The notes: generated from the letters alone by a model not told the origin. A stretch of 64,000 nt of DNA from an uncultured Chloroflexia bacterium (GCA_963809375.1 CAWEJO010000008.1:69075-133074); one strand, 5' to 3'; counted from the first letter of the stretch, positions 25,896 to 48,713 are shown. Program-made: numbers and translations.

Positions 25896-28264
25896 CTACC
25901 GGCGCCCCGCCACCGCGGGGCCGGCGTCGAGCACTGCGCGTACCCGCTCGAGGAGGTCGGTCGCGGAGTACGGCTTGGCCAGGAACGCGGTTCCCGGGGT
26001 CGAGCACGCCGCGGTGGACCGCGGCGTCGTCGGTGTAGCCCGACGCGTACAGCGCGGGGCACGCGGGGTGTTCGGCCTGGAGTCGCCGGGCCAGCTCGGC
26101 ACCGTTCATGCCGGTCATGACCATGTCCGTGAAGAGCAGGTCGACCGGCCCGGAATCCCTGGCGACCTGGAGCGCCGCCTCGCCGCTCGGCGCGCAGAGC
26201 ACCCGGTAGCCCCACCCGGCGAGGATCCGGACCGCGAGATCGCGGACGGACGGCTCGTCCTCGACCACGAGGATGGTCTCGTGGCCACCTCGCGGCGACG
26301 CCGGGGCCCGCTCGGCCGGCCGTCGCTCGGCGCGCCGATCGGTGCCGGGCAGGTAGATCGTGAACGTCGTGCCGCGGCCGGGCTCGCTCGCGGCGTAGAT
26401 CGCCCCGTTGAGCTGCTGGACGATCCCGAACACGCTCGAGAGCCCGAGCCCGGTGCCGCGCCCGCGCTCCTTGGTCGTATAGAACGGCTCGAAGATGTGG
26501 TCGAGAACGCCCTCCTCCATCCCGACCCCGGTGTCCGACACCACGAGCCGGACGTAGCGCCCGTTTCGGAGCCCGACGTGCTCACGGGCGAACGCCTCGT
26601 CGACCTCGGCCCCGGACGTCTCGATGGTGAGCGTTCCGCCGGACGGCATCGCATCCCTCGCGTTGACGGCGAGGTTCACGAGAACCTGCTCCAGGTAGCC
26701 CGGGTCGGCGAAGGTCGGGTCCGGCCCGGCGGACGTGTCGACGGCGAGGACGACATCCTCGCCGATCAGCCGCGACGAGCATCGGCACGATGCCCCGCAC
26801 GACTTCGCCGAGGTCGACGACACGAAGCTGCATCACATGGCGGCGCCCGAACGCCAGGAGCTGGCTCGTGAGCGCCGCCGCCCGATCGGCGGCCTTCAGG
26901 ATCTCGGCGATATCGCGCTCCTGCGCAGAGCCGGGCACGGCTGCCTCGAGCGCGAGCCGGCCGAACCCGCTCATGGCGGTGAGCAGGTTGTTCATGTCGT
27001 GGGCGACGCCGCCCGCGAGGCGTCCGATCGCCTCCATCTTGGTGGCCTGGCGGAGCTGCTCCTCGAGCAGCGCCCGGGCGCTGATGTCCTCCATGATCGT
27101 GGCCGAGTACCGGACGACGCCGGCCTCGTCGAGCACCGGCGAAGCGTAGACGTGCGCCGTCAGGACCGACCCGTCCCGCCGGACGTAGCGCTTCTCCATC
27201 TCGATCGAGCCCGTCCGCCCGGCGAAGAGCCCGCGCATCGCGTCGCCCGTGAGGGCGAGGTCCTCGGGGTGGGTGATGTCCCGGATCGTCATTGCCGCGA
27301 GCTCGGCCCCGTCGTACCCGAGCAGGCGCTGGAGCGCGCGGTTCGTCGAGATGCAGTGGCCCTCCGGGTCGAGGAGGAGCATCCCGATGGATGACTCGTC
27401 GAAGATCGCCCGGATCCGGGCCTCGCTCTCGCGCAGGGCGGCCTCGGCCCGCTTGCGGTCCCGCATGTCGCGCGCGATGTACTCGATCGCAGGGCGCCCG
27501 TTGAACGTGACGGCCGACGCCGTGACCTCCACGTCGACGACCTGCCCGTCGAGCCGGAGGTGGCGCTGCTCCATGAGCGGGACAGAGCCGCCGTTCGCCA
27601 GCAGGTGCTCGATCCGGCCCCGAACGACGGCCCGGTCGGCGGGATCCACGAAGTCGAGGGGACTGCGGCCGAGCAGATCGGCGGGGTCGGCCGCGCCGAG
27701 GAGCCGGGCGGCCGACGGGTTCGCGAACACGACGCGCCAGTCCTGGTGGACCACGATCGAATCGGGCGAGAGCTTGACGAGCGCCTCGTAGCGCCCCTCG
27801 GTCTCCGCCAGGGCATGGATCGCGCGGCGGCGGCGATGCGCCTCGGTGCCCGTCAGGACGAGGCATGCCGCCCGGCCGGCAGAGACCACCAGCCTGGCGA
27901 CCCAGCCCTGGATCGCCCACTCGCCAGCCGGATGTGCCTGGCCCGGCCCGCCGACGATCCGGCCCTCGAATTCGGGGTTCGCCGTCGCCGATCCGGGCGC
28001 CGGCGTGTGTGCCGCGCGCCGGGCCGCCTCGCCAAGAAGGCCCTCAACGGCGTCGCGCGCCGCGGCCCGGAGCGGCGGTTCATAGAGCGCCTCCCAGAGA
28101 GGGAGGCCGAGGAGCGCGGCCCGCGGCCGCCCGGTGAGGTCAGCTCCCGCGGCATTGGCTGCCCGGATGACCCCCTCGAGGTCGGCGACGATGACGGGCG
28201 CACCGACCGCGTCGAGGATGGCTGGGTCGACGGCCAGGCCGTCGACGTCCGAGGAGTGGCGCAC
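25896..28264 (-). CDS. PAS-PAS-PAS hybrid histidine kinase with C-terminal receiver (frameshifts near 26770 and 25995)
   Basis: three PAS domains; LAGGVAHDMNNLL, NLAVNARDAM, GTGLGL, LVVEDE, FTDMVM, FLAKPY. Confidence 0.9.
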
Positions 28265-28377
28265 GTTTCGACGATACTCGCGCCTACCCCGACGCGCAGG
28301 GGCCGAACGTCCCGTGCGCGGCGAACCGTCGGCGGCCCCGATCCGGCGGGACCCCGAGGACGCTGGAGACCGCCGGG

Positions 28378-28803
28378 TCAGGTCCCGGCAGGCGACGACG
28401 AAGCGGCGATCCGCGCCGGACGGACGACCATGACAGGGCAGCGCGCGTGGCGCACCACGTGATCGGAGACCGAGCCCAGGAAGAGGCGCCCGACGGCCCC
28501 GCGCTCGTGCGTCCCGACCACGATGAGGTCGGCGGACTCCGCCTCGGCGGCCTCGACGATCGTCTCGCCGGCGTCGCCCTCCCAGGTCAGGCCGGTGGCC
28601 TCGGCGCCGGCGGCCCGGGCACGCTGGACGATCGCCTCGATGGAGAGCTGTCGCGCCGCGCGGACGGCCGGAGCGCCGCCGACGACCGAGATCACGACCA
28701 GGCGGCCGCCCAGGCGGGCGGCCAGCTCGATCGCCTGCTCCTCGGCAGCCTCCGACGCGGGCGATGCGTCGGAGGCAAGGAGGATCGTTTCGATTCGCGC
28801 CAT
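28378..28803 (-). CDS. universal stress protein
   Basis: ILLASDAS, ADLIVVGTHERG, LGSVSDHVVRHARCPV. Confidence 0.95.
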   Translation of the reverse strand: MARIETILLASDASPASEAAEEQAIELAARLGGRLVVISVVGGAPAVRAARQLSIEAIVQRARAAGAEATGLTWEGDAGETIVEAAEAESADLIVVGTHERGAVGRLFLGSVSDHVVRHARCPVMVVRPARIAASSSPAGT

Positions 28804-28845: not shown

Positions 28846-30335
28846 CTAGGGCTTGTAGGCCGCGGCGACGGCGCCCACGACCGCGTCGACGTCCTTGGCC
28901 GTCGGCAGCACGATGAGCGTGCTCACCATTCCGAACATGCCGTCGGTGCCCTCGACGTGGGGCAGGATGTGGCAGTGGAACGCCCAGATGCCCGGCCGGT
29001 CCGCGGTGATGATCGCGTCCCACCGCTCGCCCGGGTTGACGCCCAGCGTGTCCGCGAAGAACGCGGCGCTGCCGAGCGGCGCGCCGTCACGGGCGACGAC
29101 GTGCATCCTGAATCCGTGGCTGTGCCACGGGTGCATCATGATCCCCTCGTTCATGAAGCGGATGAGCACCTTCTCGCCGACCGCCGCGAGGACCGGCACG
29201 GTGGCCGGGAACCCGTGCCCGTTGATGGTGAACCCGCCCAGCGTGTCGTTCGAGATCCAGATGTACTCGCGGTCGTAGGCCTCGCCGTAGAGCTTCTGGT
29301 ACGCCTTCTTCGGGTCGGGGTCGTCCTTCGGGTCGACGATGAAGGCCGCCAGCAGGCCGCGCCCGACCTGGTCGGTCGCGTTGTGATGCGAGTGGTACAT
29401 CAGCGACCCGGCGGGCGTCGCGGTGAACTCGTAGGTGAACTTCTCGCCGGCCGCGAACGGCTTCTGGGTCACGAACGGGACGCCGTCCATGAAGAAGTTG
29501 TCGAAGTCGACACCGTGGAAGTGGACGCCGGTCGTCTCCTTCATGTTGTTCGTGAAGGTGACCCGTACCTTCTCGCCTTCGGTGACCCGCATCGTCGGGC
29601 CTGGCCACTGCTTGTTGTAGCCCAATGCGGCGATCGGGTCCTTCAGCTCGTCGATCTTCTGCTGGAGCTCGTCGATCGTGAGGTCGAAGACCTTGACCCC
29701 GCCCTGGGTCGTCGGCTTGAGCGGCGCCAGGATGTCGTTGAGGTAGACCTGTGGCACCTGGGCGAAGGCGGGCGGCTGGGCCAGCTCGGGATAGTTGTCG
29801 GCCGCGCCGAGGATGTCCGCGAGCTGGGTGAAGATCGCCGGGTTGACGGGATCGAAGATGCCCTTGAGGGCCGGGGCCAGCGAGCCGACGTAGCGGCGCA
29901 CGACCTGGCGGGCGTTGTAGTCGTGCTCGCTCCAGCCGGCCGGCAGGTTCGGGATGGGCGAGGCGGATGGCGCGGGCGACGCCGGCGCGGGAGTCGCCTC
30001 GGGCATGCTGCTCGCGCCGGGGGTGGCGGGTGCAGGCGACGCAGGGGCTGCCGACGCAGGGGCTGCCGACGCGGCGGCGCCGACGCGGCTGGCGCCGATG
30101 CGGGCGCGGCGCTCGGGGCCGCGGCGGGCTTCGCGGTCGCGTACTGCCAGGCCGGAACCGCGGCCGGCGCGCAGGCCGCGACCGTGGCCGCGACCAGGCC
30201 GCCTCCGGCCAGGGCCGCGCCGCGGAGGAAGCCACGTCGCGTGACGCTGCCCGGGAGGGCGGCCTCGGCGGGCGTCGCGAGATCCGAACCGGACCCGAGG
30301 GGCAGGGGATCGGTGGGGCGCGTCGGAGAGTCCAT
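28846..30335 (-). CDS. Tat-exported two-domain multicopper oxidase (type B-like), probable lipoprotein; frameshift near 30080
   Basis: TRRGFL twin-arginine, VAAC; VHFHG, MYHSH, MHPWHSHG, FHCHILPH...GM. Confidence 0.88.
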
Positions 30336-30370
30336 GGGGAGATGCTAAACAACGCGTCGAGGGCCCCGAT

Positions 30371-30415
30371 GTGACCTTTGTCACCTATCGGTGGTCCGCC
30401 CGGGCCGATATGCCC
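30371..30415. promoter_or_regulatory. palindromic activator-like sites GTGAC-CTTT-GTCAC (30371-30384) and GGGCCGATATGCCC (30402-30415)
   Basis: first site is centred 42.5 bp upstream of the leaderless MCO start; it resembles both DevR and CRP/FNR boxes. Confidence 0.6.
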
Positions 30416-30610
30416 ACCGACGAATGAATCGGTCGACGATCGTGCACGCCGCTGGGGAACCGCCGACCGCGGAATCGCAGGAACGGCCGGGGGCGACCCG
30501 CCGGAGCACGCCGCGCGGTCGCCGGCGCGTGCGCCGGGGGCATCGACGACGAGGCTCGCGGCGGCAGGTCGCGACCACACGCACGCACGGGACCCTGCTA
30601 CGCTCGCCGG

Positions 30611-32192
30611 GTGACCGAAGACTCGCGTCCCCCGGTGGTCGATCCGGATGCCCTGCTGGCCGCCCTCGAGGTGCTCGAGCGGTGGGCCGGCTCGCCGGAA
30701 GCCCATCCAGCGGCTCGCGGCCAGCTGCTCGAGGAGATCCTCAACGCGACGAGTGCCCGCGGCGCCTATCTCGACGCGACGTTCCCGCCGCTTCCCCCGA
30801 TCGCGGCCGGCGCGGGCACGCTGAAGCGGCGGCCGGGCGGGCGGCGCGCCGGGGGTCACCGCGATCGACATTCGTGCCGCGGCCGACGATCGGTCCGGCC
30901 GGGCCGGGACGCTGTACCTCGACCGCCCCGCCGCGGGCTCGCGGATCGTCGCCCGGCTGCTCGCGATCGGTCTCGAGTCGGCCGGCCTGCGCGAGGAGCT
31001 GGCCCATTCGGCGGAGCGGCTCGGCGCGCTCGACGAGGGCATCCGGGCGATGGCGGCCGTGCTGTCGGTCGAACGCGTGCTGCAGGTGATCGTCGACAGT
31101 GTCCGCGCGCTCACGGGGGCCGCCCACGCGGCCCTCGGGATCATCGATCCAGAGGGCTTCATCGACCAGTTCATCACGAGCGGCATCAGCCGCGCCGAGC
31201 GCGCCCGGATCGGCTCGCCGCCGCGCGGCCACGGGATCCTCGGCCTGATCATCCGCGAGAACCAGTCGTTCCGGATCGACGACATCGCGACGGACCGCCG
31301 GCGCCACGGATTCCCGGCCAACCACCCCGTGATGCACGCGTTCCTCGGCGTCCCCGTCGCGATCCACGGCCGCACGATCGGCAACCTGTACCTGGCCGAC
31401 AAGCCGGGCGGCTTCACGGAGGCCGACCAGCAGATCGTCGAGACGTTCGCGGCCCACGCCGCGATCGCGATGGAGAACGCGCGGCTGCACGAGCAGGTCG
31501 AGCGCCTCGCGATCGTCGAGGAGCGCGAGCGGATCGGTCGCGACCTCCACGACGGCGTCATCCAGTCGATCTACGCGGTCGGGCTCTCGCTCGAGGACGT
31601 TCCCGAGATCATGGAGGAGGAGCCCGGGGAGGCCCGCCGCCGGGTGGAGCGCGCCATCGAGAGCCTCGACCAGACGATCCGCGACATCCGCAACTTCATC
31701 TTCGGGCTGCGCCCCCAGCTCCTCGACGGGGTGGGCTACGTCGAGGGTGTCGCCGCGCTCGCCGACGAGTTCCGGGTCAACACCATGGTCGACGTCGAGC
31801 TTCGCGCCCGGCCCGACGTGGCGCTCCTCCTCGACGAGGGCCAGTCGCTCGAGCTGCTGTCGATCACCCGCGAGGCGCTCAGCAACATCGCCCGCCACGC
31901 CAAGGCGACTCGCGCGATCATCGCCGTCCGACCGTCCGACGACGGCTCGGGCGTGGTGATCGAGATCATCGACAACGGCATCGGCTTCGATCCCGCCGCC
32001 CCGCGCGGGCTCAGCCACCAGGGCCTCCGGAACATGCGATCTCGCGCTTCCTCGATCGATGCCACCCTGACGATCGAAAGTCAACCCGACGCCGGGACGC
32101 GTATCATCGTCCGCGTGCCGCGCGGCAACGCGACCGGCAGCCCCGAGCAGGCCCTCGGAACGGATCCACCGGAGGAACGCACTTCGCCATGA
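30611..32192 (+). CDS. DosS/DosT-like GAF sensor histidine kinase (frameshift near 30840)
   Basis: GHGILG...GFPANHPVMHAFLGVPV heme-GAF motif; ERERIGRDLHDGVIQ; REALSNIARH; DNGIGF. Confidence 0.9.
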
Positions 32193-32863
32193 CGGAGCAG
32201 CCCGAGCAGCGTCCACTGCGCCTGCTCGTCGTCGACGATCACGAGGTGGTCCGCCAGGGCCTCGTCGCCCTGATCGAGCGCCGCGAGAGGTTCCAGGTCG
32301 TCGCCGAGGCGGGGAGCGTCGAGGAGGCGCTCGAGGCCGCCCGCAAGTTCCAGCCGGACCTCGTCGTGATGGACGTGCGCCTGCCCGACGGCTCGGGCAT
32401 CGAGGCGTGCCGCGAGATCCGCTCCGAATTGCCGGCGACCCGCGTCGTGATGCTGACGAGCTACCCCGACGAGGAGGCGGTCCTCTCCGCGATCATCGCC
32501 GGCGCGTCCGGCTATCTCCTCAAGCAGATCCGGGCCCGCGATCTCGTGGCCGCGCTCGAGTCGGTCGGGCGCGGGGAATCGCTCCTCGACCCCGCCGTGA
32601 CCGAGAAGGTCCTCGAGCGCGTCCGTCGCATCGCGTCGGGCACCTACACGGACGAGCTCGCCCAGCTGACGGCGCAGGAGCAGAAGATCCTCCAGCTCGT
32701 GGCCGAGGGCAAGACCAACAAGGAGATCGCCTCGGAGGTCTTCCTCTCGGACAAGACCGTGAAGAACTACGTCAGCTCGATCCTCTCGAAGCTCAACCTC
32801 CAGCGCCGGGCTCAGGCGGCGGCGTTCGTCGCCAAGCATCGGCTGCCCGGCTCGGGTACCTGA
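32189..32863 (+). CDS. DosR/DevR-like NarL-family response regulator
   Basis: VVDDHEVVRQG, MDVRLPDGSG, GASGYLLK, GESLLDP, KTVKNYVSSILSKL; ATGA-coupled to the kinase. Confidence 0.92.
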   Translation: MTEQPEQRPLRLLVVDDHEVVRQGLVALIERRERFQVVAEAGSVEEALEAARKFQPDLVVMDVRLPDGSGIEACREIRSELPATRVVMLTSYPDEEAVLSAIIAGASGYLLKQIRARDLVAALESVGRGESLLDPAVTEKVLERVRRIASGTYTDELAQLTAQEQKILQLVAEGKTNKEIASEVFLSDKTVKNYVSSILSKLNLQRRAQAAAFVAKHRLPGSGT

Positions 32864-33034
32864 CCCCGGGATCGCGCCGCCCCAGGATTGCGCCGCGCCA
32901 GCGTCGCGTGCGCCGCCGGCTTGCGCGGCCAACGGCAAGGTCACGCCGGCGAGCTGCACGTTCATTCATCAGCCGACTAATCGGGACGCCTGACGCCACG
33001 CTGCGCCCCCGGCCGGGCCCGCAGATCCGCACGT

Positions 33035-33200
33035 GGACGCTTCGCCGCCCGCCGGAGCCGCGTTGTCAGTCGCAACTGGTTGACGACGGGGTTGCGAGGG
33101 CAGCGATCCAGCCCGACGAGGTCTCATACCTGTGCACGCCAGCCGCGTGCTGAATGAGACTGCGCGAAACTGAGGTGCAGCCGTCGGCGGTGTCTGTTCA
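33035..33200. ncRNA. candidate rod-shaped structured RNA (6S-like?) between convergent genes
   Basis: nested stems CGACGG 33084-89/CCGTCG 33181-86, GTCTCAT 33121-27/ATGAGAC 33154-60, GCACGC 33134-39/GCGTGC 33145-50; lower GC than the flanks. Confidence 0.35.
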
Positions 33201-33267
33201 GACTCGCCCGCGCCCGCGACCGCGGCCGGGCGCCGCGCCCGGGGACGCGGCCGGGGACGGCGACCCG

Positions 33268-33850
33268 TCAGCGTCCCCTGGACGGCCCCCGTCGGCCCTC
33301 CGCCGCCGCGACTCCCCGCCGTCCCGCCTGCCGGAGAAGCGCGTCGAGCTCCGCGCGGTGGGATCGCCCGATCGGCGTCCGGTCGAGCCACTCGATGTAC
33401 TCGAGGTCGGCCCGGGCGACCTCGCCGAGCGACCAGCCCGCGTAGCGCCCGAAGTGCAGGATCGTCCCCGCCGGGCGGCCGGGGGCCGGACCGGCCTCCG
33501 CGGGACCGACCGGCGGAGCGTCGGGCCAGGCGTGGGGCACCGCCCGCCGCGGAGCGGCCTCGGGCCGTTCGCTCCTCGGGCGCGGAGGAGCGGCCTCGGT
33601 GGCCGGGGCGAGAATCCGCGCCGGGTGACCGATCCCGGCGTGCCGCGGCCCGGTCGTAGGCAGCCCGTCGCTCGGGGTCGGCGAGGAGGTCGCGCGCCGC
33701 GTTGAGCTCGGCCATCCGGGCGGCGGCGTCCGGCGACCCGGCGACGTCCGGGTGATAGCGCTGGGCGAGCTTGCGGTAGGCCGCCTGGATGATCTCCGCG
33801 TCGGCCTCCGGGTGGACCAGGAGCGTGCGGTACGGGTCGAGCGTCGGCAT
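33268..33850 (-). CDS. J-domain (DnaJ-type) protein with C-terminal FGRY small domain; one frameshift
   Basis: DPYRTL...AAYRKLAQRYHPD; C-terminal ILHFGRYAGWSLGEV...YIEWL. Confidence 0.85.
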
Positions 33851-34014
33851 CGGCGCCGATTCTCCGATCTCGGATCGGTCGCGTCCACGGGACGGATGGG
33901 GCATGCTCGTACCAGGCGACGTGGCCCGCCCGTGCGGCGCCGTGAAGGACGCCGGCCCGGTCGTGGCGTCTGTCCGCCGCACCGGGCCACGTGGCCACCC
34001 GTGTGTCGCGCCGC

Positions 34015-34090
34015 CCGGTCGCGGCGGTGTCCGGTCGCGGCGGTGTCCGGTCGCGGCGGTGTCCGGTCGCGGCGGTGTCCGGTCGCGGCG
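34015..34090. repeat. tandem repeat of CCGGTCGCGGCGGTGT (16 bp, 4.75 copies)
   Basis: exact copies read directly; intergenic, no spacers. Confidence 0.95.
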
Positions 34091-34162
34091 CCCTTCAGCA
34101 GCTCGAGCTCCGTCTCCCTGCCGCGCCCCGACCCACCGCCCGGCCGACCCGGACGCCAACCG

Positions 34163-35224
34163 TCAGGCGCGCACCTCCTGGCGCATGAACGCCATGTAGG
34201 CGAGCCCGAAGGCGACCGCCGTGATGCCGACGATCACGAGCAGCTGCTGGCCGACGACGAGCAGGCTCTGGTCCAGCGAGAGGATCGACGTCGCGAGCGT
34301 GCCCTGCTGGGCCGCCGCCACGAGCTGGTCGGTCGTCATGATCGACTGCGTCAGGTGCGGGTTGAGGATCGCCTGGGTCGCGACCTGGAACATGCCATCC
34401 GGGCTGATCCGGTTGATCGCGTCGACGAGGCGGCTGTTGGCCAGCGCCTGGGCCTGGGTCGGCGCGGCGCCGAGCGGCGACAGCAGGCCAGCGAGCGTGC
34501 TGCTCAGCAAGCCGCCGAACAGCGAGAACACGAGCCAGGCCGAGATCGACACCAGGGCCGACGATGCGGCCCGGCGCATCAGCACGGAGCACAGCGTCGC
34601 GAGGGCCAGCCAGAAGCCGATGTAGACGACCGTGAAGACATACCAGACGAGGAGCCGGGCAGCATCTTCGGCGGTCGGCACGACCCCCAGCTGCAGCACG
34701 CCCCAGGCCGTGATGATCAGCAGGATCGCGCCGAGGGCGATCGCCACGGCGGTGAGGCCGGCGACGAACTTGCCGTTGATCACGTCGTCGCGGTAGATCG
34801 GCTGGGCGAGCAGGCGGGGCAGCGTCCGCTCGGAGCGCTCGCGGTTCACGGCGTCGAATCCGAAGGCGATGCCGAACAGCGGTGCGAGCCACGCGACGAG
34901 GGTCACGAACGCGGGCAGGGGCGTGGTGGCCGTCTGCTGGGTCGCCCCGGCCACGTCCGAGGCGCTGAGCGTGAACAGCAGCGGGAACAGGCTGTCGCTC
35001 GTCCGCAGGCTCGCGGCGACAGCGGTGATCTGCTGGGAGACCGAGTAGATCGCGGCCAGGCCGGCCAGCGCGAGGACGGCGAAGACGACCGCGAATCGGA
35101 CGCTCCCGAGGTGATCCGTGAGCTCCTTGTCCGCCACGATCCGCCAGCCGCCCGACGGCGGCCGATCCGCGCGGCTGGCCGGGCGCGGGCCGTCCGGCTC
35201 CACCTGCGAGGCCGCTCCGCTCAT
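34163..35224 (-). CDS. ABC-2 type transporter permease
   Basis: [34 protein letters not shown]; multiple TM helices. Confidence 0.9.
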
Positions 35225-36497
35225 CGGGGTCCTCCGTCCGTCGGATCGTCCGGGACGTCGGCGCCGCCGGGCTGTCCGGGCTGGTCGTCGCCCACACCGC
35301 CCGGCGCCTCGGGTCGGCCGGCTCGCCGCGGGGCACGGTGGATTCGGGGGACCGGGGCGCCGGCCGTGGTCGTCGGCGCAGCGGTTCTCGCGGCGATGCT
35401 CCCCGCCCGGGCGTCCGGCGCCGGAGCCGGCGGCCGGGCCGGCAGCCGAGCCAGGAGATGCCTGCCCGTCGTCGCGGCTCCCCTCCGGCAGGTCGGCGGC
35501 CGCATGGACGAGGCGGCGATAGATCGAATCGAGGCGCTCCTCGCGGGTTCGGAGGTGGTCGAGTCGAGGCTCCGCGGCCGTCAAGGCCGGCACGAGATCG
35601 GCCGCGATCCCGGGCCTGCCCGTGACGATCACGATGCCCAGGTCCTGCGGGTCGGCCGCGACGGAGGCGACCCCGGCGACGCCGAGCAGGGCTGTCCGCA
35701 CCTGGTCGATCGAGGCCGTCTGGCCGCCGGCCGTCCGGGCGCCGACCTCGACCGCGTCCTCGGTCCGGGCTCCCTCGCCGGCGAGCTCACGGACCGTCCC
35801 GTCGGCGATGAGGCGGCCCTTGTAGAAGATGCCGACCCGATGGCAGATCGACTGGACCTGGTCGAGCAGGTGGGAGGAGAGCAGCACGGCAATCTGCCGC
35901 TCCGCCGCGATCCGATCGATGAGCGCGAGCAGCTCCGCGACGCCCTCCGGATCCAGCGACGCGGTCGGCTCGTCGAGGATCAGGACGGACGGGTCCTTGA
36001 GGAGCGCGTCGGCGATGCCGAGGCGCTGGCGCATCCCGCGGGAGTACGTCTCGACGGCTCGATCGGCGACAGTCGGCCAGGCCGACCTGGTCGAGCAGGT
36101 CGTCGATCCGCTGCGCCGCGACGGCGCCGGGGATCCGGTTGAGCCGCCCGGTGTAGGCCAGGTTCCGGCGGCCGGACATCCCGTCGTAGAAGCCGACGCT
36201 GTCGGGCATGTACCCGACGTGCCGCTTCACCTCGAGCGGGTCATGCATCGGATTGACGCCGACCACCCGGGCCTCGCCGGCGGTCGGCTCGGTGAGCCCG
36301 AGGAGCATCAGGACCGTGGTCGTCTTGCCGGCGCCGTTGGGTCCGAGCAGCCCGAACACCTCGCCGGGCCGCACCTCGAAGCTGAGCCGGTCGACCGCGG
36401 TCCGGTCGCCGTACCGCTTGGTCAGGCCGAGCGCCTCGATGACCGGCTCGCGGCCGGTGTCGCGTTCGACGCTCGACGGTGCCTCCTGCGCGACCAT
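35221..36497 (-). CDS. ABC ATP-binding protein (frameshifts near 36055 and about 35400)
   Basis: [26 protein letters not shown]. Confidence 0.88.
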
Positions 36498-36500
36498 CGG

Positions 36501-37719
36501 TCAGCGCCGTCCGAAGTGCCCGAACATCCAGCTCAGGGCAATGAACACGAGCACGATCAGGGCGCCCCCGACGATCGAGCCAGTTGAGCCCGACCTGGAC
36601 CGTGACCCGGACCGTCTCGGTGGCGGTCGCGGCGGGGACCGACGGGCTCGTCGCGGAGGTGACGTTGAAGGCGAGACGGTAGTCGCCTGCGACCGCGTTC
36701 GACGCGGGCGTGACGGACGCGGTCACGTTCTGCGTCTTGCCCGGATCGAGCCGGTCGATCGTCGGGGTGTCGAAGGTCGTCGTCCAGCCTGTCGGCGGCG
36801 TCGCGCTGATCGTGATCCCCGTCAGCGTTCCCGACCCGGTGTTCGAGATGACCCAGGTGTACTTCTGGACGGCGCCAGCCTGCGCCGTCATCGCCAGGGT
36901 CTCGTCCTGCGTCGGGTCGAGGCTGAGCGTGTAGCTGCCGGTGATCGTGACCGGCAGGAGGGCCGGGTCGGGCTGGATGTTCCCGTCGGCCGCCACATCC
37001 ACCTCGACCTGGTAGTCACCCGCGGCGGCGCCGGAGGGCGGTGCGACGCTGACGCTGACGCTGCCCGTGCCGGCGGCCGGGACCTTGAGGCTGGTGGCCT
37101 GGCTCGAGCCGCCCGGCAGCGCATTGACCTGCCAGCCGGCCGGCTGCTGGGTCGAGAAGGTGAAGGTCGTGTCCCGCGGCGTGTTGTTGTGGATGGCGAG
37201 GCTGTAGCTGAGCGTGCCGCCTGCGGCGGTCTTCTGGCCGGTGACGGGATCGATCGTCACGCTCCCGCCTGCTCCGCTCTCGACCCGCATCGAGAGTCGC
37301 AGGTCTGCGGTCAGGCCGCCCGACCGGGCGCGAACGGTCAGCGGGATGGTCCCGCTGGCGTCCGCCGGCAGGATCACGTCGAGGCTCACGGCGGCCGGCT
37401 TCTCGGCATCCGCCTGGACGCTGTCGACGGTGAAGCCTCCGCCCGTCAGGCGGGCGGCGCCGCCCTGCGGGGTCCCGTCGATCGACAGGTCCACGACGCG
37501 CAGCGCGTCGCTGGTGACCGTGATCGGGAACGAGACGCTGGCACCGGGCTGGACCGCCACGCTCGGGTATGGGGTGCTGAGCGTCAGCGGGTCGGCCGCG
37601 CGGGCAGCCGACGCGAACGGAGCGGCGAGGGGCACCGCAACCAGCGTGACGAGCACAGCGCCGAGGAGCCGGGCAGGGTGCCGCCGGGCCGCACGCCCGC
37701 GGTCAGTGACGCGATCCAT
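36501..37719 (-). CDS. NEW3/Ig-like repeat surface protein with C-terminal TM anchor (frameshift near 36580)
   Basis: signal peptide; three Ig-like repeats (TPYPSVAVQPG, PAGWQV, PPTGWTT, AGDY). Confidence 0.8.
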
Positions 37720-37871
37720 GGATCCTCCGTAGAACCCGATGCGGTTGAGATGGTCCGGTCGCCCGGCGGCTGGCGGGCGGCGCGCGAGGCACCGCACCCC
37801 AGGCCCGGCAGCCGGCGCGCGCAATCCGGGCCGCGACGAGGATACCGGGATGCTGATTGGGGCGTGGTCAA

Positions 37872-37890
37872 GCGATTGTCATGAAATCGC
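37872..37890. promoter_or_regulatory. 19-bp inverted repeat GCGATT-GTCATGA-AATCGC
   Basis: AT-richer IR in the divergent region between the NEW3 operon and the CoA-transferase. Confidence 0.45.
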
Positions 37891-38062
37891 AATCAAAGGG
37901 GCTCCGACCGCGTTCGGGCCCGTTGGCGCGCGGCGGTGGGCCGGTCGGCCCTCCGGCCACGGCGGGCCAGGCCCGAGACTTCGGACAAACGCCAACCGCC
38001 CGGCGGCGGGCCGATGCGCCCCGCGCCGGACGCGTGGTTGAGCTGCCGTGGAGGCTGTCCGC

Positions 38063-39335
38063 ATGAGGATCGTGAGCGCCGCCGAGGCCGTGGCGGGGAT
38101 CCGGTCACACGACCAGGTGTACGTCCAGTGCGCTTCGGCGGCGCCCAGCGTGCTGCTCGACGCCCTCGTGGCCAGGGCGCCCGAGCTCGAGGACGTCCGG
38201 ATCGTCCACCTGCACATCGAAGGGCCCGGCCCGCACCTGGCCCCGGAGATGGCCGGCCACTTCCGGCACCTCGCCCTGTTCATCGGCCCCAATGCCCGGC
38301 GCGCCGTCAACGAGGGCCGGGCCGAGTACGTGCCGGTCTTCCTGTCCGACGTGCCCCACCTGTTCGATGCGAACCTGTTCCCCCTGGATGCCGTCCTCTG
38401 CAACGTCTCGCCGCCCGACCAGCACGGGTACTGCTCGCTCGGCACGTCGGTGGAGGCGATGAAGGCCGCCATCCGGCGTGCCCGGGTCGTGATCGCCCAG
38501 GTCAACGCGGCGATGCCCCGGACGCTGGGCGAGAGCTTCATCCACGTGTCCGAGATCGACCTGGGCGTCGAGGTGAGCGTGCCGCCCTGTCCGCGGCCGG
38601 ACGGCCCGATCGGGGAGGTCGAGCAGCGGATCGGCGAGTTCGTCGCGGACCTCGTCCCGGACGGCGCGACCCTCCAGATGGGGATCGGCGCCATCCCGAC
38701 GGCTGTCGCCGCCTGCCTGCGCGACAAGCAGCACCTGGGCGTCCACACCGAGCTGATGACCGACTGCGTGCTCGACCTTGTCGAGGCCGGGCGCGGTCAC
38801 CGGGATGGCCAAGGAGCGCAATCGCGGCAAGATCGTCGCCACGTTCATGATGGGAACCGAGCGCCTCTACCGCTTCGCCGACGACAACCCGATGATCGAG
38901 ATGCGGGCGTGCGACTTCACGAACGACACCCACATCATCCGGTCCTTCCGACGGATGACGGCGATCAACTCGGCGATCGCCATCGACCTGACCGGCCAGG
39001 TCTGCGCCGACTCGATCGGCTGGTCGCTCTACTCCGGCGTCGGCGGGCAGATGGACTTCATCCGCGGCGCGGCGCTCGCCCCCGAAGGCCGGGCCATCAT
39101 CGCGCTGCCATCCACCGCGTCGGACGGAAGGATCTCGCGGATCACGCCGTTCCTCGCGGAGGGTTCCGGCGTCGTCACGACCCGGGCCCACGTCCGCTCG
39201 GTCGTCACCGAGTGGGGCGTCGCCGAGCTCTACGGCAAGTCGATCCGCGAGCGGGCGAAGGCGCTCATCGCCATCGCGCACCCCGACTTCCGCGAGGACC
39301 TGACGGCCCAGGCGCGCCGCACGCACTACCTGTAG
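38063..39335 (+). CDS. acetyl-CoA hydrolase/4-hydroxybutyrate CoA-transferase family protein (frameshift near 38790)
   Basis: LQMGIGAIP, LGVHTEL, SGVGGQMDFIRGA, VTEWGVAEL. Confidence 0.92.
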
Positions 39336-39558
39336 CGACGGCACACGGACGCGCGGGCGTCGAGTGGAGCGAGGTCGGAAGGGGCGGCGCGCGCGATGGG
39401 CACCGCAAGAGCAGTGGTGGACGCCGCGCGTCCCCTGCGACGTCCACCACGCACCGTAGTCTCTTCCGGAAATCGGGCAACGTGGCAGGGCCGAACGGCC
39501 CCCTTCAATGGGCCGCCGGGCGGGTGCCGGCGCGACCAATGCGGGGGAACCTTGCGGC

Positions 39559-39945
39559 ATGCCCCAGCCGATCGCGTCGCCCGCGCGCCGCCTCCTCATC
39601 GTCAGCGACCACGTCGGGTCGTCGGACGCGCTTGCGGCGCACCTGGCGCGGCATGGCTTTGCCATCGTCGGGGAGGTCCGCTCGGCGGCGTCCGCCGCGG
39701 TCGCCGCACGGACGTGCGATCCCGACCTCGTGATCGTCGACGGCGCCCTCCGCGGGGGCTGGACCGTCGTGGCAGACGCGCTCGACGGCGTGGTCCCGCG
39801 CACCCGCATCGTCGTGCTGACGGCCTACCTCGGCGCGGACGAAGCGCGCGAGGCCCGCGCGGCCGGCATCGGGGCCACGATCCTCAAGCACGTCGAGGGC
39901 GGCAGCCTCGCCAGCCGCCTCCGGGCGATCGGGGGACCGGCGTGA
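39559..39945 (+). CDS. stand-alone atypical receiver-domain protein
   Basis: RLLIVSDH, LVIVDG, VVLTA, ILKH; no output domain. Confidence 0.7.
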   Translation: MPQPIASPARRLLIVSDHVGSSDALAAHLARHGFAIVGEVRSAASAAVAARTCDPDLVIVDGALRGGWTVVADALDGVVPRTRIVVLTAYLGADEAREARAAGIGATILKHVEGGSLASRLRAIGGPA

Positions 39946-40164
39946 CAACGCTCCGATCGTCGCGCCCGGCGCGTCCCTGCACCCGCCCCGCCAGCGGCGG
40001 CGGTGGTGGTGCCGATACGCCGCGGGAATGAGCTGATTCACGTGAGGCCGGCCGGCGCCACCTGACCCCCTGGCGCCCGCGGTCTCGAGCGGCCGCCACC
40101 CCGCCGGACGTGGCGGGTGGCGGCCGCTTCTTCCTTCCAGGTTCCCGCTGGCTTCCGGTTCGCG

Positions 40165-40720
40165 CTAGGTCCCCGCCGGGACGCCGGCGCCGAACGCCAG
40201 GCCACGCTCGAAGACGGCGAGGTCAGCCTCGAGCACCGCCGGCCGCTTCTTCCCGACGATCTCCGTCAGGGCGTGGCGGACGGCGTCGGCAGACACGAGG
40301 CCGGTCCGGCCGATCAGGGCGCCGAGTGCGGCGACGCTCACCAGCCGGTCGTCACCCGCCTCGCGGGCGAGGCTGCGTGCACGGCGGTCGCAGCTCGTCG
40401 ACGTCGGTCCGGCCGGACTCGGCCTCGACGAGCGTGTCGTTGACGACCAGCACGCCCCCGGGCGCCACGACCGGCCCGAACCGCTGGAGCGACGGCGGGT
40501 TGAGGACGACCGCGGCCCAGGCCTGGTCGACGACCGGCGACCCGATCGGCTCGTCGCCGATCAGCACGGTGCAGTACGCCGTGCCGCCCCGCATCTCCGG
40601 CCCGTACGAGGGGATCCACAGGACCTCGAGGTCCTCGTCCATGGCCGCCCGGGCCAGGACCTGGCCGGCGAAGAGCAGCCCCTGGCCGCCGAAGCCGGCG
40701 AAGATGATCGAGCGTTCCAT
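40165..40720 (-). CDS. 2-oxoacid:ferredoxin oxidoreductase gamma subunit (frameshift near 40385)
   Basis: AGFGGQG, PSYGPEMRGGTA. Confidence 0.92.
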
Positions 40721-40723
40721 CGA

Positions 40724-41509
40724 TCAGCCCTCCTTCGGCTCGACGGCCTTCGTCCGGTCGACGATGACGCCGGGCGGGTAGTGGGCGGCGACGACGTCGC
40801 GCAGCCGGTCGATCGATTCCTGGGGCGTCATGCCCCAGCCGACCGGGCAGTTGCTGATCACCTCGACGATCGCGAACCCGCGCCCTTCGAGCTGGACCTG
40901 GCAGGCCTTGCGGAGGTACTGCTTGGTCCGGCCGATCGACTGCGGGTCGGCCACCGATCCGCGGGCGGCATACGCGACCCCCGGCATCAGCGCCAGCATC
41001 TCGGTCATCGGGATCGGGTAGCCGTGGAGCGCCGCGTCGCGCCCGAGGGGCGACGAGGTGCTGCTCTGGCCGAGCAGCGTCGTCGGTGCCATCTGGCCGC
41101 CGGTCATGCCGTAGATGCCGTTGTTGACGAACACCGCGGTGAGCAGCTCGCCGCGGCCCGCCGCGTGGATGATCTCCGCCGTGCCGATGGCGGCGAGGTC
41201 GCCGTCGCCCTGGTAGGTGAGGACGAACGCATCGGGCCGCACCCGCCGCACGCCGGTCGCCACGGCGGGCGCCCGCCCGTGGGGGGCCTCGACCCAGTCG
41301 ACGCCGAGATAGTCGTACGCGAAGACCGCACAGCCGACCGGCGCCACGGCGATCGTCCGGGGACCGACACCGAGCTCGCCGAGGATCTCGGCGATCAGGC
41401 GGTGGACGACGCCGTGCCCGCAGCCCGGGCAGTAGTGCGTGCTTCGGTCGTTGAGGAGCTCCGGGCGCTCGAAGATGACCCGCGCGCCCTCGGGGATCTG
41501 CAGGCTCAT
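40724..41509 (-). CDS. 2-oxoacid:ferredoxin oxidoreductase beta (TPP-binding) subunit
   Basis: [34 protein letters not shown]. Confidence 0.94.
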
Positions 41510-42675
41510 CGGGACGCCTCCGCCATCGCCTTCTCGCGTGGCCGTTCGGGCGCGGGGCCGTCGAGCATCTCCCGGAGCCGGGCGACGATCTCGGCGGGGC
41601 TCGGGATCATTCCCCCGGTCCGTCCCTCGAACGACACGGGCACCCGGCCTTCCACGGCGAGCCGGACGTCCTCGACCATCTGGCCGGCCGACATCTCGAC
41701 GACGAGCAGGCCGCGGACATCCCGGGCGACATCGTCGAGCGCCTGGGACGGGAACGGCCAGAGCGTGATCGGCCGGAAGAGCCCGGCCCGAATGCCCTGC
41801 TCGCGGGCCTGGGCGATCGCCGTGCGGGCCACCCGCGCCGCCGTCCCGTAGGCCACGATCACGACGTCGGCGTCGGCGAGCCGCTCCCCGGCCCACCTGA
41901 CTTCACGGGCCGCGATCCGCGCGTACTTGGCCTGCAGGTCCTGGTTGTGGGCCTCGAGGTCCTCGGGCTTGAGGTGGAGCGACCGCACGACCCGGGGCGC
42001 CCGGCCGTTGGCGCCGTCGACCGCCCAGGGCGTCGGGAGGCGCGGCGGCTCGCGGAAGTCGAGCTCGACCGGCTCCATCGCCTGGCCGAGGGTGCCGTCG
42101 GCAAGGATCATGACCGGCGTCCGGTACCGCTCCGCGAGCTCGAACGCGTCGGCCATGAGGGTCATCGCCTCGCCGATCGACGATGGCGCGAGCACGGGCA
42201 CCCGGTAGTCGCCGTGGCCGTGCCCCTTCGTCGCCTGGAAGTAGTCGGACTGCGACGGGCCGATGCTGCCGAGGCCCGGGCCGCCGCGCATGACGTTGAC
42301 CAGCACGACCGGAACCTCGCCGGCCGCCATGTAGCTCATCGCCTCGGCCATCAGGCTGATGCCCGGCGACGAGCTGCTGACCATCACGCGGGCGCCCGTC
42401 GCGGCTGCGCCGAGCGCCATGTTGATCGCCCCGAGCTCGCTCTCGGCCTGGACGAACGCCCTGCCCTCCTCGGGCATGCGGCGGGCCATCCATTCGAGGA
42501 GCTCCGCCTGCGGCGTGATGGGGTAGCCGAAGTAGGCATCGCACCCGGCGCGAATCGCGGCCTCCGCCATCGCCTCGTTGCCCTTCATCAGGACGCGGTG
42601 GCCGTGGGGGAGATGGTCGGGCGCCCAGGTCCGGGTCGCTTCGTGCGTGAAGGGATGGTGCTGCACGTTCGGCAT
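41506..42675 (-). CDS. 2-oxoacid:ferredoxin oxidoreductase alpha subunit (Vor type)
   Basis: [34 protein letters not shown]. Confidence 0.94.
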
Positions 42676-43044
42676 CACGCGATCCCGCCGGCCGGCACGG
42701 CCGGCGCCAGCCTCGTCGCGGCACGCCGGGGCGGCGCGACGATCGTCAGGACGCAATCCGGGCAGACCCGGGCGCACAGCGCACAGCTGGTGCACGCGGC
42801 GGCGTCCACCAGGCGAACCGGGTGATACCCGAGCGCGTTGACTCGTTCCATGTCGAGGGCGATCGCCCGGCTCTCGCACACGCCGATGCAGAGCGAGCAG
42901 CCCTTGCAGTAGTCGGCGGCGACGAAGAGCGGGGTCCAGGGTGGTGTCCCGGGCGCGGGTCCGGCCGAAGCCGGCGGCTCCGCGCCCGGTATTGCCAGGG
43001 GATCTCGAGTCTCGTTCCGGGGTGCCGCGATCATCGAAGCGCAT
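42675..43044 (-). CDS. 2x[4Fe-4S] ferredoxin (delta subunit)
   Basis: [23 protein letters not shown]; AGGAGG RBS before ATG 43044 with a likely frameshift. Confidence 0.9.
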
Positions 43045-43317
43045 GCCTCCTGTGGACGGCGAAGGCCATCGTCGAGACGACACGCCGGCCGCGGCTCGAC
43101 GCCGGGGACAGCGCGCCCTCATTTGGCTTCATCGTCGGTCGCGGTCCGCGCCTCCGACAGTGCCGAAAGTTGCGACTTGGTTCCGAAGGAGTACCGGCCA
43201 AAGGTCACCTGATCGGATGACGAGGCAGGCCCGGCACCATCGGGCGAAGCGCGGCGATCCGGGTGACGAATGCGGGCCGTTCGGCAGGTCACGCGGAAGA
43301 CCGACCGGCGGCAATCT

Positions 43318-45793
43318 ATGCGCATGGCTGCATCGGTTGGCGCTCGTTCCGGCGCCGCGGAGCACGGCTCCCGTGTCCCCGCTGCGGACGACGCCAACGG
43401 CCCCAGTGCGCCCGCGCCGGCCGTGGCCAGGGCGTTCACCGTCGAGGGCGTCGTCCAGGGCGTCGGGTTCCGCCCCTTCGTCTGGCGGCTCGCGACCGAG
43501 CTTGGCCTCGCGGGCCGCGTCCGCAACGCGGCAGGGCGCGTCGAGGTGGAGGCTGCCGGGACCGCCGCGGCCCTCGACGCATTCGCCCGGCGCCTGAAGT
43601 CCGACGCGCCGCCCCGCGCCCGGGTGGAGCGGGTGACCGTCGTCCCGCTCGACGCGGCGGCCGCCGCGACGCTGGCAGTGCCGTTCGCGATCGAAGAGAG
43701 CATCGTCGCGGCCTCCGTCGACCGGTTGTTCCCGCCGGACATCGCGACCTGCGACGACTGCCTCGTCGAGCTGTTCGATCCTGCCGATCGGCGCTACCGG
43801 TACCCGTTCACCAACTGCACCAACTGCGGGCCGCGGGCAACGATCATCGACCAGCTGCCTTACGACCGGGCCAGCACGACGATGGCGGCGTTCCCGCTCT
43901 GCCCCGCGTGCGCCCGCGAGTACGCGGATCCCGCCGATCGACGCTTTCACGCCGAACCGGTCGCGTGCCCGGCCTGCGGGCCGCGCCTCGCCTGGCGGCG
44001 GACGGGGAGCGCGGGGCCGGAGGCGTTCGGCGAGGACGCCTTCGCCGCCGCGGTCGCCTCCCTGACGCGCGGGGGCATCGTCGCGGTCAAGGGCCTGGGT
44101 GGCTACCACCTCGCCTGCGACGCGACGGACGAGTTCGCCGTCCAGCGCCTCCGGGAGCGGAAGCACCGCTGGGCGAAGCCGTTCGCGATCATGGTTCGCG
44201 ACGTCGCCGCGGCCGAGCGGCTGTGTCGGCTCGGGTCGGCGGAGCGCGCCCTGCTCACGAGCCCGGCCCGGCCGATCGTCCTCCTCGAGGCGCTCGTCCC
44301 GGGTGAGCCGCAGCTGGGGCCGTCGGTCGCGACCGGGAACCGGCGCCTCGGCGTGTTCCTGCCCTACACGCCGCTCCACCACCTCCTGCTCGACGCGATC
44401 GGACGGCCGATCGTCCTCACGTCGGGCAACCTGACCGACGAGCCGCTGGCCACCGACGACGCCGACGCGCTCGACCGGCTGGCCGCGCTTGCCGACGGCT
44501 TCCTCGCCCACGACCGCGTCATCCGGGCCCGCTATGACGACTCGGTCACGCGCGTCGTCGCCGGGCGCGAGAGCATCGTCCGGCGGGCCCGCGGCCACGC
44601 GCCCGACCCCGTGGCGCTGCCGATCGAGGCGCCCGCGCCGATCCTCGCCGTCGGCGCCGAGCTCAAGCACACGTTCACGCTCGCCCGCGGGGCAAGGGCG
44701 CACGTGGCGCCCCACAACGGCGACCTCGAGGATCTCGCCACGCATCGCGCCTTCACGGACGGCCTGGCCCACCTCTCGCGGCTGCTCGCGCTCGAGCCCG
44801 AGGTCGTCGCCCACGACCTGCACCCCGAGTACCTGTCCACGAAGTACGCCGTCGAGCACTTTCCGCCAGCCAAGCGGATCGCGACGCAGCACCATCACGC
44901 CCACGTCGCATCGTGCGCGGCCGAGCACGGCATCACCGGCCCGTTCATCGGCGTGGCCTACGACGGCCTCGGGATGGGCGACGACGGGACGTTCTGGGGA
45001 GGCGAGATCCTCCTCGCCGACCTTGCCAGCTATCGGCGAGTAGCGCGATTTGGGCGGGCGCCGATGCCGGGTGGCGCGCTCGCCGTCAAGCGACCCTATC
45101 GAATGGCGCTCGGCTATCTCCTCGGTGCGGAGCCCGTCGGAGATCCGGGCCCCGGCGCCGCGGCCGGCATCGAGGGGGCGGACGATCTCGCCGCTGCCTT
45201 CCTGGCGCGTTTCGATCCGCGGGAAGTGGCTACCGTTCGGACGCAGGTGAGGCGCGGCGTGAACGCGCCGACGGCGTCGTCCGCAGGGCGGCTCTTCGAC
45301 GCCGTCGCTTCGCTTCTCGGCCTGCGGGACGTGGCGGAGTACGAGGCCCAGGCCGCGATCGACCTCGAGCTCGCCGCGGACGACCGGATTGCCGCGCCGC
45401 TGCCCTACCGGATCGCCAGGGTCGACGGGCTTCTCGTGTACGACCCTCGCCCGACCCTGCGGGCCGTCCTCGAGGGCACGGCGGCGGGCCGCCTTCCGGC
45501 CGGCCTCGCCGCGGCGTTCCAGGAGACGATCGCCACGCTGACCTCCGAACTGCTGGACGGAGTACGGACGCGGACGGCAGTGCGTACCATCTGCGTCTCG
45601 GGCGGCGTCTTCCAGAACCGCCGCCTGGCGTCCACGCTTGCTCCGGCGGCTCTCGCGCGACGGCTTCGAGGTGTTCATCAACCGGCAGGTTCCAGTCAAC
45701 GACGGGGGAGTCAGCTACGGCCAGGCGGCGATCGCCGCGGCCAGGCTGGCGGGCGGCGCGTCACGCGACCTTCCCGCCACGCCGGACGGGTAG
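43318..45793 (+). CDS. hypF: [NiFe]-hydrogenase maturation carbamoyltransferase (frameshift near 45640)
   Basis: GVVQGVGFRPF, Zn-finger CxxC pairs, KGLGGYHL, HHHAH, SSAGRLFD, NDGGVSYGQ. Confidence 0.96.
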
Positions 45794-45808
45794 AACAGGA
45801 GCGATCCC

Positions 45809-46192
45809 ATGTGCCTCGGCATCCCCGGGCGGGTCATCGAGATCCGTGACGATGCGGGCCTTCCTATGGGGAAGGTCGATTTCGGCGGCGTTCGGAAGGA
45901 CGCCTGCCTCGCCTACATCCCCGAGGTGCAGATCGGCGACTTCGTGATCGTGCACGTGGGCTTCGCAATCAGCCGGGTCGACGAGGACGAGGCCATGAAG
46001 ACGCTCGAGATCCTCAGCACGATGGGCGACCTCGTCAGCGCAGAGCTGGCCACGATGGGGCCCGGCATGGAGCTCCCGGCCGTCGTGTCCGACGACGGGC
46101 AGCCATCGACCGGCGCGTTCGCAGGTAACGCGGGCTCGCCGCCCGATGGCGCTGCGAGCGAACGCTCGGCCGGAGGGGTGCCCCTGGCATGA
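45809..46192 (+). CDS. hypC: hydrogenase maturation chaperone
   Basis: [16 protein letters not shown]. Confidence 0.96.
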
Positions 46193-48513: not shown

Positions 48514-48680
48514 CGGGGAAGATAGCCTCACAGGCATCCCGGCTGGCGGCGCCCGGCCCACGCGGCCACTCGGCTGGCCCGCGAGCAGTCCGGCTGGCCC
48601 GCGACGGCCCGTCGCGACCCGTGCCGTTCGGCCCCCGGCCACCCTGCCGGCAGATCGCCCGGACGGGCCATTCGGGACTT

Positions 48681-48696: not shown

Positions 48697-48713
48697 GAGA
48701 CCATGATGCGCCC

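Follow-up and report, generated by a model that had tools for sequence, protein, structure and literature searches.

A DevR/DosR-OsdR-type two-component system and part of its predicted regulon in a Limnocylindria (Chloroflexota) genome

The stretch of DNA analysed here, 64,000 nucleotides in length (GCA_963809375.1 CAWEJO010000008.1:69075-133074; hereafter the window), belongs to an uncultured soil bacterium, which is not an actinomycete but a member of the class Limnocylindria in the phylum Chloroflexota. It encodes a sensor kinase and a response regulator that very likely form a two-component system of the DevS/DosT-DevR(DosR) type, accompanied by part of their regulon. A 14-bp inverted repeat, G(G/T)G(A/C)C-N4-G(G/T)C(A/C)C (the box), stands at a fixed activator position before genes for a copper oxidase, a CoA-transferase, a 2-oxoacid oxidoreductase and hydrogenase functions, suggesting that a switch known elsewhere operates in a new phylum and in part on new targets. 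A first-pass annotation of the window had proposed a hypoxia regulon analogous to that of mycobacterial DosR; each sequence that it quoted was found where it had been placed, its observations were partly confirmed, and the DevR/DosR-OsdR-type interpretation is supported. The window belongs to a metagenome-assembled genome (MAG) of 2.48 Mb, 60% complete and 73% G+C (G000 in our set, the window being G000:C8:69075-133074), which we compared with 20 loci of the same genus and 80 further loci across the class (regulator 80-96% identical). Many of these relatives are also MAGs, with isolate names starting with MFD, which we take to be long-read assemblies. Limnocylindria are abundant in soil and freshwater, and are not known to have any cultured representative. 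A regulon that can be read from DNA offers a testable picture of how these bacteria cope with the loss of oxygen.

The regulator found its best solved-structure match in DevR (3C3W; 199.8 bits, E=3e-58), ahead of VraR (158 bits) and NarL (129 bits), and Pfam recognized its Response_reg (E=2e-29) and GerE (E=5e-19) domains. Its recognition helix, KTVKNYV(S), is the same as that of Mycobacterium tuberculosis DevR and occurs once in the six-frame translation of the MAG. We take the stretch KTVKNYVS to hold the DNA contacts Lys179, Lys182 and Asn183 of DosR, whose DNA-contacting residues were reportedly described by Wisedchaisri et al. in 2005. In the receiver pocket, which is identical to that of DevR, the stretches DDHE, MDVRLPDG, LTSY and YLLK align with the phospho-acceptor Asp54 and the pocket residues Asp8/9, Thr82 and Lys104 of DevR. 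The closest solved relatives of the kinase GAF domain were the heme-binding GAF-A domains of DevS and DosT (2W3D, 2Y8H and 2VZW; E 5e-28 to 6e-27), and the equivalents of both the proximal His149 (H of GFPANHPVM) and the distal Tyr171 (Y of GNLYLADK) are retained; Gly replaces DevS Glu87, as it does in DosT, and Ile replaces H89. The peptide GFPANHPVMHAFLGVPV, on which the earlier recognition of a heme-GAF kinase had drawn, is encoded at 31308, and the reading of the pair as such a kinase and a DevR-like regulator beside usp and multicopper oxidase genes holds, with heme binding as a prediction. The kinase gene precedes the regulator gene in every one of the 80 further loci, and the gene order usp-oxidase / kinase-regulator-CoA-transferase-receiver ... 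oxidoreductase / hypF is kept across the class. The kinase was found in none of 16 small genomes of the same order. The kinase gene has a leaderless GTG start (30611) behind an extended -10, TGcTACGCT (30596-30604), which the genus loci keep as TGcTAC(G/C)CT, and the N-terminus of the kinase varies within one genus between a domain of ~150 aa and a short tail of low complexity.

The box consensus given in the first-pass annotation agrees with the form taken in about 100 related loci. Across the class, the kinase-regulator operon is preceded by a box of the form rAAG(T/G)GAC-N4-GGCCC in about 50 of 63 usable promoters, where it might serve autoregulation. Among 52 kinase-upstream sites, positions G4, G6, C8, G13 and C15 are invariant or nearly so, and the strictly invariant G6, C8, G13 and C15 are the equivalents of G5 and C7 of the DevR half-site, both of which are essential in each half-site (Chauhan et al., PMC3177182). 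An unbiased scan of offsets placed a second box at +22/+23 bp from the first (scores of 7.3 and 6.5 out of 10, against a background of 4.07 and a range of 3.0-5.4 at all other offsets), indicating the tandem, in-phase layout at -63.5 and -42.5 known from DevR promoters (PMC3177182). The kinase promoters of the class have boxes centred at about -62 and -39.5, and in the compact ones the first box is most often centred -61 to -66 from the start codon. The local motif is built from GTGAC and GGGCC halves. The GGGCC-type boxes of the class equal the operator consensus of OsdR, AGGGCCGATCGGCCCT, which was confirmed by gel shift (PMC5069765).

Counts of the motif exceed expectation. The window contains 11 occurrences of the degenerate pattern, compared with 4.7 +/- 2.0 in shuffled sequences, and four of the version with A/T in the two middle spacer bases, compared with 0.31 expected; not one of 100 shuffles reached 11 or 4, respectively. 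A 20-bp weight matrix, trained on the 52 kinase-upstream sites of other genomes, found 11 sites above 16 bits in the MAG where 2.4 were expected, the box at 30371 ranking first (24.2 bits) and that at 43195 seventh (17.9 bits). In 1.27 Mb of related loci, 132 of the 158 matches above 12 bits (84%) were intergenic, about 52 being training sites, and the intergenic share of this DNA is 20% by GC3 gene calls. The matrix was trained on primary kinase-upstream boxes and therefore under-scores GGGCC-type sites such as 37938, so that such sites were judged on conservation instead. Matrix enrichment and phylogenetic footprinting, both proposed earlier as checks on the regulon, came out in its favor; in the latter, the sites at 30371, 37938, 39488, 43195 and 43274 were each conserved at the orthologous promoters of relatives.

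The best-scoring box of the genome belongs to the oxidase promoter. Both the leaderless ATG at 30335 and its -10 element TAGCAT (30342-30347, reverse complement) are conserved, and 18 of the 19 genus loci retain the box at 30371, its center lying 42.5-45.5 bp away from the start of the divergent gene. Given -10 elements that end 6-8 nt before the ATG, this center would lie at about -42.5 from the transcription start site (TSS), in agreement with the class II activator position claimed for it. When the 20 genus loci were aligned, the conserved blocks were the start and -10 element of the divergent Tat-signal gene, the box, in the form [GA][GT]GAC[CA]TT[TC]G[GT]C[AC]C, and a weaker block about 23 bp further on. 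In the window, the segment 30393..30415 aligns with the relatives' second box, GGGCCGA(C/G)CGTCCC. Either candidate within it breaks an invariant base, and the one at 30402, which had been listed as a box, is doubtful, being out of register with the second box of the relatives. The oxidase itself carries the Tat signal TRRGFLRGAA and is closest in solved structure to the two-domain laccases 2ZWN and 3G5W; assignment as NirK was considered and rejected on this match.

The remaining promoters of the window show comparable conservation. Before the receiver gene, 16 of 18 loci carry a 10/10 match to G(G/T)GCC-N4-GGC(C/A)C at the position of 39488, centred -62.5 to -66.5, and across the class the receiver promoters add the second box at +22/+23, with positions -12..-7 occupied by an xAxxxT hexamer. 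All 20 genus loci hold GGGCC(G/A)TTCGGCCC or GGGACCTTCGGCAC at -42.5/-43.5 from the conserved ATG of hypF, again with a -12..-7 hexamer of the form xAxxxT. The sequence TATGCGCATG, which spans the hypF start (43317-43326), is also conserved in the genus. On the oxidoreductase side, the element ATCGCAAC(C/T)(C/T)TTCGGCAC (43160-43176, minus strand) lies at -42.5 as reckoned from a conserved -10, GA(C/G)GCT/GACGAT, with the strong box about 35 bp upstream, and one subgroup of the genus has a strong box at a fixed distance on the same side. This element is better conserved in the genus than second boxes usually are; its right half-site is good and its left aberrant. The CoA-transferase site at 37938 is kept as G(G/T)(G/T)CCGGTCGGCAC in L024, L025 and L027, the three loci of the genus that share this gene order, and box-like sites precede this gene in many other genera. 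The core GGGCCGGTCGGCCC, identical to 37938, is included in the published list of OsdR sites (PMC5069765).

A further predicted target lies outside the window, namely the [NiFe]-hydrogenase operon of the same genome (G000:C7:243700-243960, L123), which is preceded by the tandem boxes ATGCC-GTTG-GGCAC and GGGAC-CTGT-GGCCG, 22 bp apart. Reckoned from a conserved -10, CATAGT, the boxes are centred at -42.5 and -64.5, and the leader measures about 130 nt; the arrangement is kept in a dozen genomes of the genus. The small subunit has a Tat signal, the large subunit has its nearest relatives among the membrane-bound uptake enzymes of group 1, and the best solved structures are those of Allochromatium vinosum (3MYR) and Salmonella Hyd-5 (4C3O). 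Each of the outputs proposed earlier (copper oxidase with usp, CoA-transferase, receiver protein, 2-oxoacid:ferredoxin oxidoreductase and hypF) has a conserved box; the hydrogenase is of the group-1 uptake type and not fermentative.

Taken together, these features suggest how the system may work. The kinase would sense gas or redox state through heme bound in its DevS-GAF-A-like domain, low O2, NO or CO being the possible signals, and would phosphorylate the regulator, dimers of which would bind the 14-bp inverted repeat. A well-conserved box would bring a second dimer to the weaker box 22-23 bp away, and the promoter-proximal dimer, at about -42.5, would stand in for the -35 element and recruit RNA polymerase as a class II activator, with activation as the predicted effect. 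The target promoters would have weak xAxxxT -10 elements and be mostly leaderless; in the loci L021-L100, the genes for the kinase, receiver, HypF, oxidase and CoA-transferase are indeed mostly leaderless in appearance, with a TAnnnT or xAxxxT hexamer ending 6-8 nt before the start. Within the window, the targets would be the oxidase-usp pair (30371), the CoA-transferase (37938), the receiver (39488), the oxidoreductase (43195) and the hypF-led operon (43274), with the group-1 [NiFe]-hydrogenase operon as a target elsewhere in the genome. The earlier idea of an analogous DosR-type regulon with a different output is thus supported by regulator, kinase, box, position and spacing, and hypoxia is a plausible signal by analogy with DosR.

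Several observations weigh against this interpretation. The domain order GAF-A/GAF-B/HisKA_3/HATPase of DevS was not found in the kinase, in which a single recognizable GAF domain directly adjoins the kinase core. The preceding N-terminal domain (~150 aa) has no Pfam match and is missing in some relatives. The kinase promoter in the window has no box at -42.5 or -63.5; the 30371/30393 pair is some 200 bp away from the -10 of the kinase, in a position that suits the divergent oxidase. The canonical GGGAC-N4-GTCCC is absent from the window and occurs nine times in the genome, several secondary boxes match poorly, and the matrix score of 37938 is only 6.7 bits. In addition, TSS positions were read off -10-like hexamers and start codons.

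The placement of the box pair for the divergent gene in the window's genus would also fit a regulon operator belonging to another transcription factor, of which the kinase-regulator operon is merely one target, and genes for ArsR, Rrf2 and PAS kinase proteins lie in or near the boxed set. We consider this unlikely, since the box agrees in half-site, spacing and essential bases with the motifs established by experiment for DevR and OsdR, the only protein of the MAG with the DevR recognition helix is the regulator in the window, and the box adjoins the operon in most loci of the class, as described above. Binding of the boxes, or at least of 30371, by an activator of the CRP/FNR family at a class II promoter of the copper oxidase is distinctly improbable. 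With its flanks, the site at 30371, centred at -42.5, reads TGTGA-N6-TCAC, a 9/10 match to the CRP consensus. Every genome of the genus encodes several HTH_Crp_2 proteins, some of them 8-15 kb from the oxidoreductase/hyp cluster, a further point against DevR-type control, and in other genera small cyclic-nucleotide (cNMP)-binding proteins are themselves boxed targets. However, the resemblance of 30371 to a CRP/FNR site is limited to the present genome and one subgroup. Most orthologous sites in the genus and class have a right half of GGCCC or GGCAC (for example, GTGACATTCGGCCC), which is not a CRP/FNR half-site, and they keep the G-x-G-x-C / G-x-C-x-C pattern of DevR/OsdR boxes; symmetric TGTGA-N6-TCACA or TTGAT-N4-ATCAA halves are not conserved among the orthologous promoters of 30371. 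Other conserved sites, such as GGGCCGAACGGCCC, are unlike CRP/FNR sites, and the 22-23 bp tandem spacing is a hallmark of DevR that counts against a CRP/FNR protein. The CRP/FNR-family genes 8-15 kb from the cluster lie at G020:C9:804605, G004:C1:279271, G011:C3:575194 and G006:C1:1150874; among the matches listed, none is on the window's own contig.

That the palindromes arose by chance in a 73% G+C genome, as GC-rich inverted repeats, or are terminator hairpins is highly improbable: about 4.7 GC-only versions are expected per 64 kb, matrix matches of 12-14 bits barely exceed expectation genome-wide (61 against 42) and some exact matches are intragenic (18629, 21510, 43633 and 63678), but promoter sites stay at fixed distances over about 100 loci while their flanks diverge, matches in relatives are largely intergenic, the A/T-spacer pattern is enriched, and no box is terminator-like or accompanied by a T-tract. 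Chance is refuted for the sites at 30371, 37938, 39488, 43195 and 43274. It remains the best reading for those at 7240 and 7262, which had already been flagged as chance matches and score below 0 bits, and for those at 1118, 1180 and 1211, which had been counted as boxes of MCO-like and SCO genes. The latter three score below 4 bits, and 1180 and 1211 overlap the probable true 5' coding end of the SCO gene. The region 1118-1211 is not syntenic in relatives, where a PCuAC-type gene lies upstream of the SCO gene, leaving no orthologous promoter for comparison.

The DevR/OsdR-type system favored here has close actinobacterial counterparts. It shares with M. tuberculosis DevR(DosR)-DevS/DosT a NarL-family regulator (49% identity) with the same recognition helix, a His/Tyr pocket of the GAF-A type, the essential G/C positions of the boxes and their tandem, in-phase arrangement at about -42.5/-63.5, and, when targets across the class Limnocylindria are considered, genes for Usp, CBS-domain and P-type ATPase proteins. 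In contrast, it occurs in the Chloroflexota, prefers the half-sites GTGAC and GGGCC to GGGAC, has one linked kinase gene and not two, and lacks a recognizable GAF-B between its heme-type GAF and the kinase core; its targets include a two-domain laccase, a CoA-transferase, a VOR-type oxidoreductase, hyp genes and a group-1 hydrogenase, and its promoters are mostly leaderless. The OsdK-OsdR system of Streptomyces coelicolor (SCO0203/SCO0204) has a consensus, AGGGCCGATCGGCCCT, that shares its core form with 39488 and 37938 (PMC5069765), and USP genes are clustered beside the system in both organisms. However, the genes under OsdR control serve development and stress responses in a sporulating actinomycete, whereas the outputs here are metabolic (hydrogen, 2-oxoacid, copper oxidase), and GTGAC is the usual left half of the primary box. 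Our results support a DevR/OsdR-type system and predicted regulon in Chloroflexota, a phylum new to this known mechanism; the sensor is simplified, and the outputs differ in part.

The hydrogenase deserves separate comparison. Berney et al. reportedly found in 2014 that Hyd3 of M. smegmatis, a cytosolic, H2-evolving enzyme of group 3b, depends on DosR. The boxed enzyme here is a Tat-exported, membrane-bound uptake hydrogenase of group 1, so the analogy with Hyd3 holds for regulation only and not for enzyme type. In M. smegmatis, hydrogenase genes adjoin the DosR cluster and are induced at low oxygen (PMC2799521). A full-text literature search for DosR and Chloroflexi returned no title or abstract concerning a DosR system in Chloroflexi. 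The conservation of DevR/OsdR promoter logic (box sequence, tandem spacing and the -42.5 position) extends beyond the Actinobacteria, and the predicted regulon ties a putative heme sensor to a copper oxidase, to the oxidation of hydrogen and to 2-oxoacid metabolism that depends on ferredoxin.

Table 1. Genes and candidate regulatory elements of the window (positions counted from its first nucleotide).
Feature	Position	Strand	Basis and remarks
PAS-HisKA sensor kinase	26582..28264	-	Pfam; leaderless GTG 28264, -10 TATCGT at 28271-28276 (reverse complement)
Box GGGCCGAACGTCCC	28300..28313		Centred -42.5 from GTG 28264; absent from the first-pass list
Universal stress protein	28378..28803	-	Pfam Usp, E=5e-30; directly downstream of the oxidase, same strand
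Tat-lipoprotein two-domain multicopper oxidase (laccase type)	28846..30335	-	Pfam Cu-oxidase_3/_2
Primary box GTGACCTTTGTCAC	30371..30384		Centred -42.5 from the oxidase start; top matrix score of the genome, 24.2 bits
Possible weak second box	30393..30415		GGTCCGCCCGGGCC at 30393 (offset 22) or GGGCCGATATGCCC at 30402 (offset 31)
DevS/DosT-like kinase	30611..32192	+	N-terminal domain of ~150 aa, heme-type GAF, HisKA_3, HATPase; Pfam and solved-structure match
DevR/DosR-like response regulator, NarL family	32189..32863	+	Best solved structure 3C3W (DevR), 49% identity
Box GGGCCGGTCGGCCC	37938..37951		Upstream of the CoA-transferase
Acetyl-CoA hydrolase/transferase family gene (butyryl-CoA:acetate CoA-transferase-like)	38048..39335	+	Pfam, NCBIfam; single frame in relatives
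Tandem box GGGCCGAACGGCCC	39488-39501		-64.5 from ATG 39559
Tandem box GGGCCGCCGGGCGG	39510-39523		-42.5 from ATG 39559
Single-domain receiver protein	39559..39945	+	Pfam Response_reg, E=9e-9
2-oxoacid:ferredoxin oxidoreductase operon, VorB-like	40352..43034	-	Pfam; NCBIfam PRK07119, 519 bits, above cut-off
Oxidoreductase promoter element GCAACTTTCGGCAC	43160-43173	reverse complement	-42.5 from the TSS suggested by -10 GACGAT (43131-43136)
Oxidoreductase strong box GTGACCTTTGGCCG	43195-43208	reverse complement	17.9 bits; centred ~-77.5
Box GGGCCGTTCGGCAG	43274..43287		Centred -43.5 from hypF ATG 43324
[NiFe]-hydrogenase maturation genes hypF, hypC, hypD and following gene	43324..48698	+	Pfam HypF domains, HupF_HypC, HypD
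Box-like site GGGCCATTCGGGAC (9/10)	48665-48678		Centred -42.5 from ATG 48714 of the ArsR gene heading a sulfur-relay operon
Near-palindrome ATGCGCATGTGCGCAT	48681-48696		Between the box and the -10 of the ArsR gene

Four of the genes in Table 1 are each interrupted by a single frameshift: the kinase (~30870), the copper oxidase (~30006-30080), the CoA-transferase (~38700) and the oxidoreductase at its 5' end (43034-43122, the start of delta/alpha). Their orthologues in relatives are uninterrupted, and the frameshifts are therefore probably assembly errors of the MAG, not signs of pseudogenes. The oxidoreductase genes run in the order delta-like ferredoxin (ATG 43034, found by tblastn), alpha, beta, gamma.

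Two further promoters may be added to the regulon. The PAS-HisKA kinase, whose gene is not syntenic in the related loci that we fetched, is probably a candidate second sensor under DevR-like control, judging from the box before its leaderless start. The ArsR-DsrE-TusA-SQR operon, with box-like sites at 48621-48634 (-86.5) and 48665-48678 (-42.5), the proximal one breaking an invariant base, is probably a regulon target as well, and other genera likewise have ArsR-type genes with a box about 42 bp upstream. Boxed genes elsewhere in the class encode Usp, a CBS-BON protein, a P-type ATPase, NirK with an Rrf2 regulator, cNMP-binding proteins, a DsrE-like protein and pyruvate:ferredoxin oxidoreductase (PFOR). 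The element of the ATGCGCATGTGCGCAT type recurs as CGCATGTGCGCATG between the Dev-like boxes and the kinase -10 of about 18 genus relatives (L002-L020), though not at the kinase promoter of the window, and as TATGCGCATG at the hypF start. An ArsR-type repressor may use it as an operator superimposed on the regulon; the ArsR-type 8-mer is not significant in the window alone, with two copies against 0.86 expected. We suggest tentatively, and with low confidence, that a minimal kinase with a single heme-GAF domain and its DevR-like partner drive a non-mycobacterial low-O2 program, some promoters of which also carry the operator of a second regulator. Equally tentatively, this program would comprise H2 uptake by the group-1 hydrogenase with its maturation genes, the oxidation of 2-oxoacids linked to ferredoxin together with a CoA-transferase, the two-domain laccase as a secreted enzyme, and an operon for sulfide and sulfur relay. 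If so, oxygen/redox status and sulfur/metal status would be integrated on the same promoters. Apart from these promoters, a perfect palindrome, GTGACTGTCGTCAC, lies at 15933-15946 between two convergent genes, in a non-promoter position.

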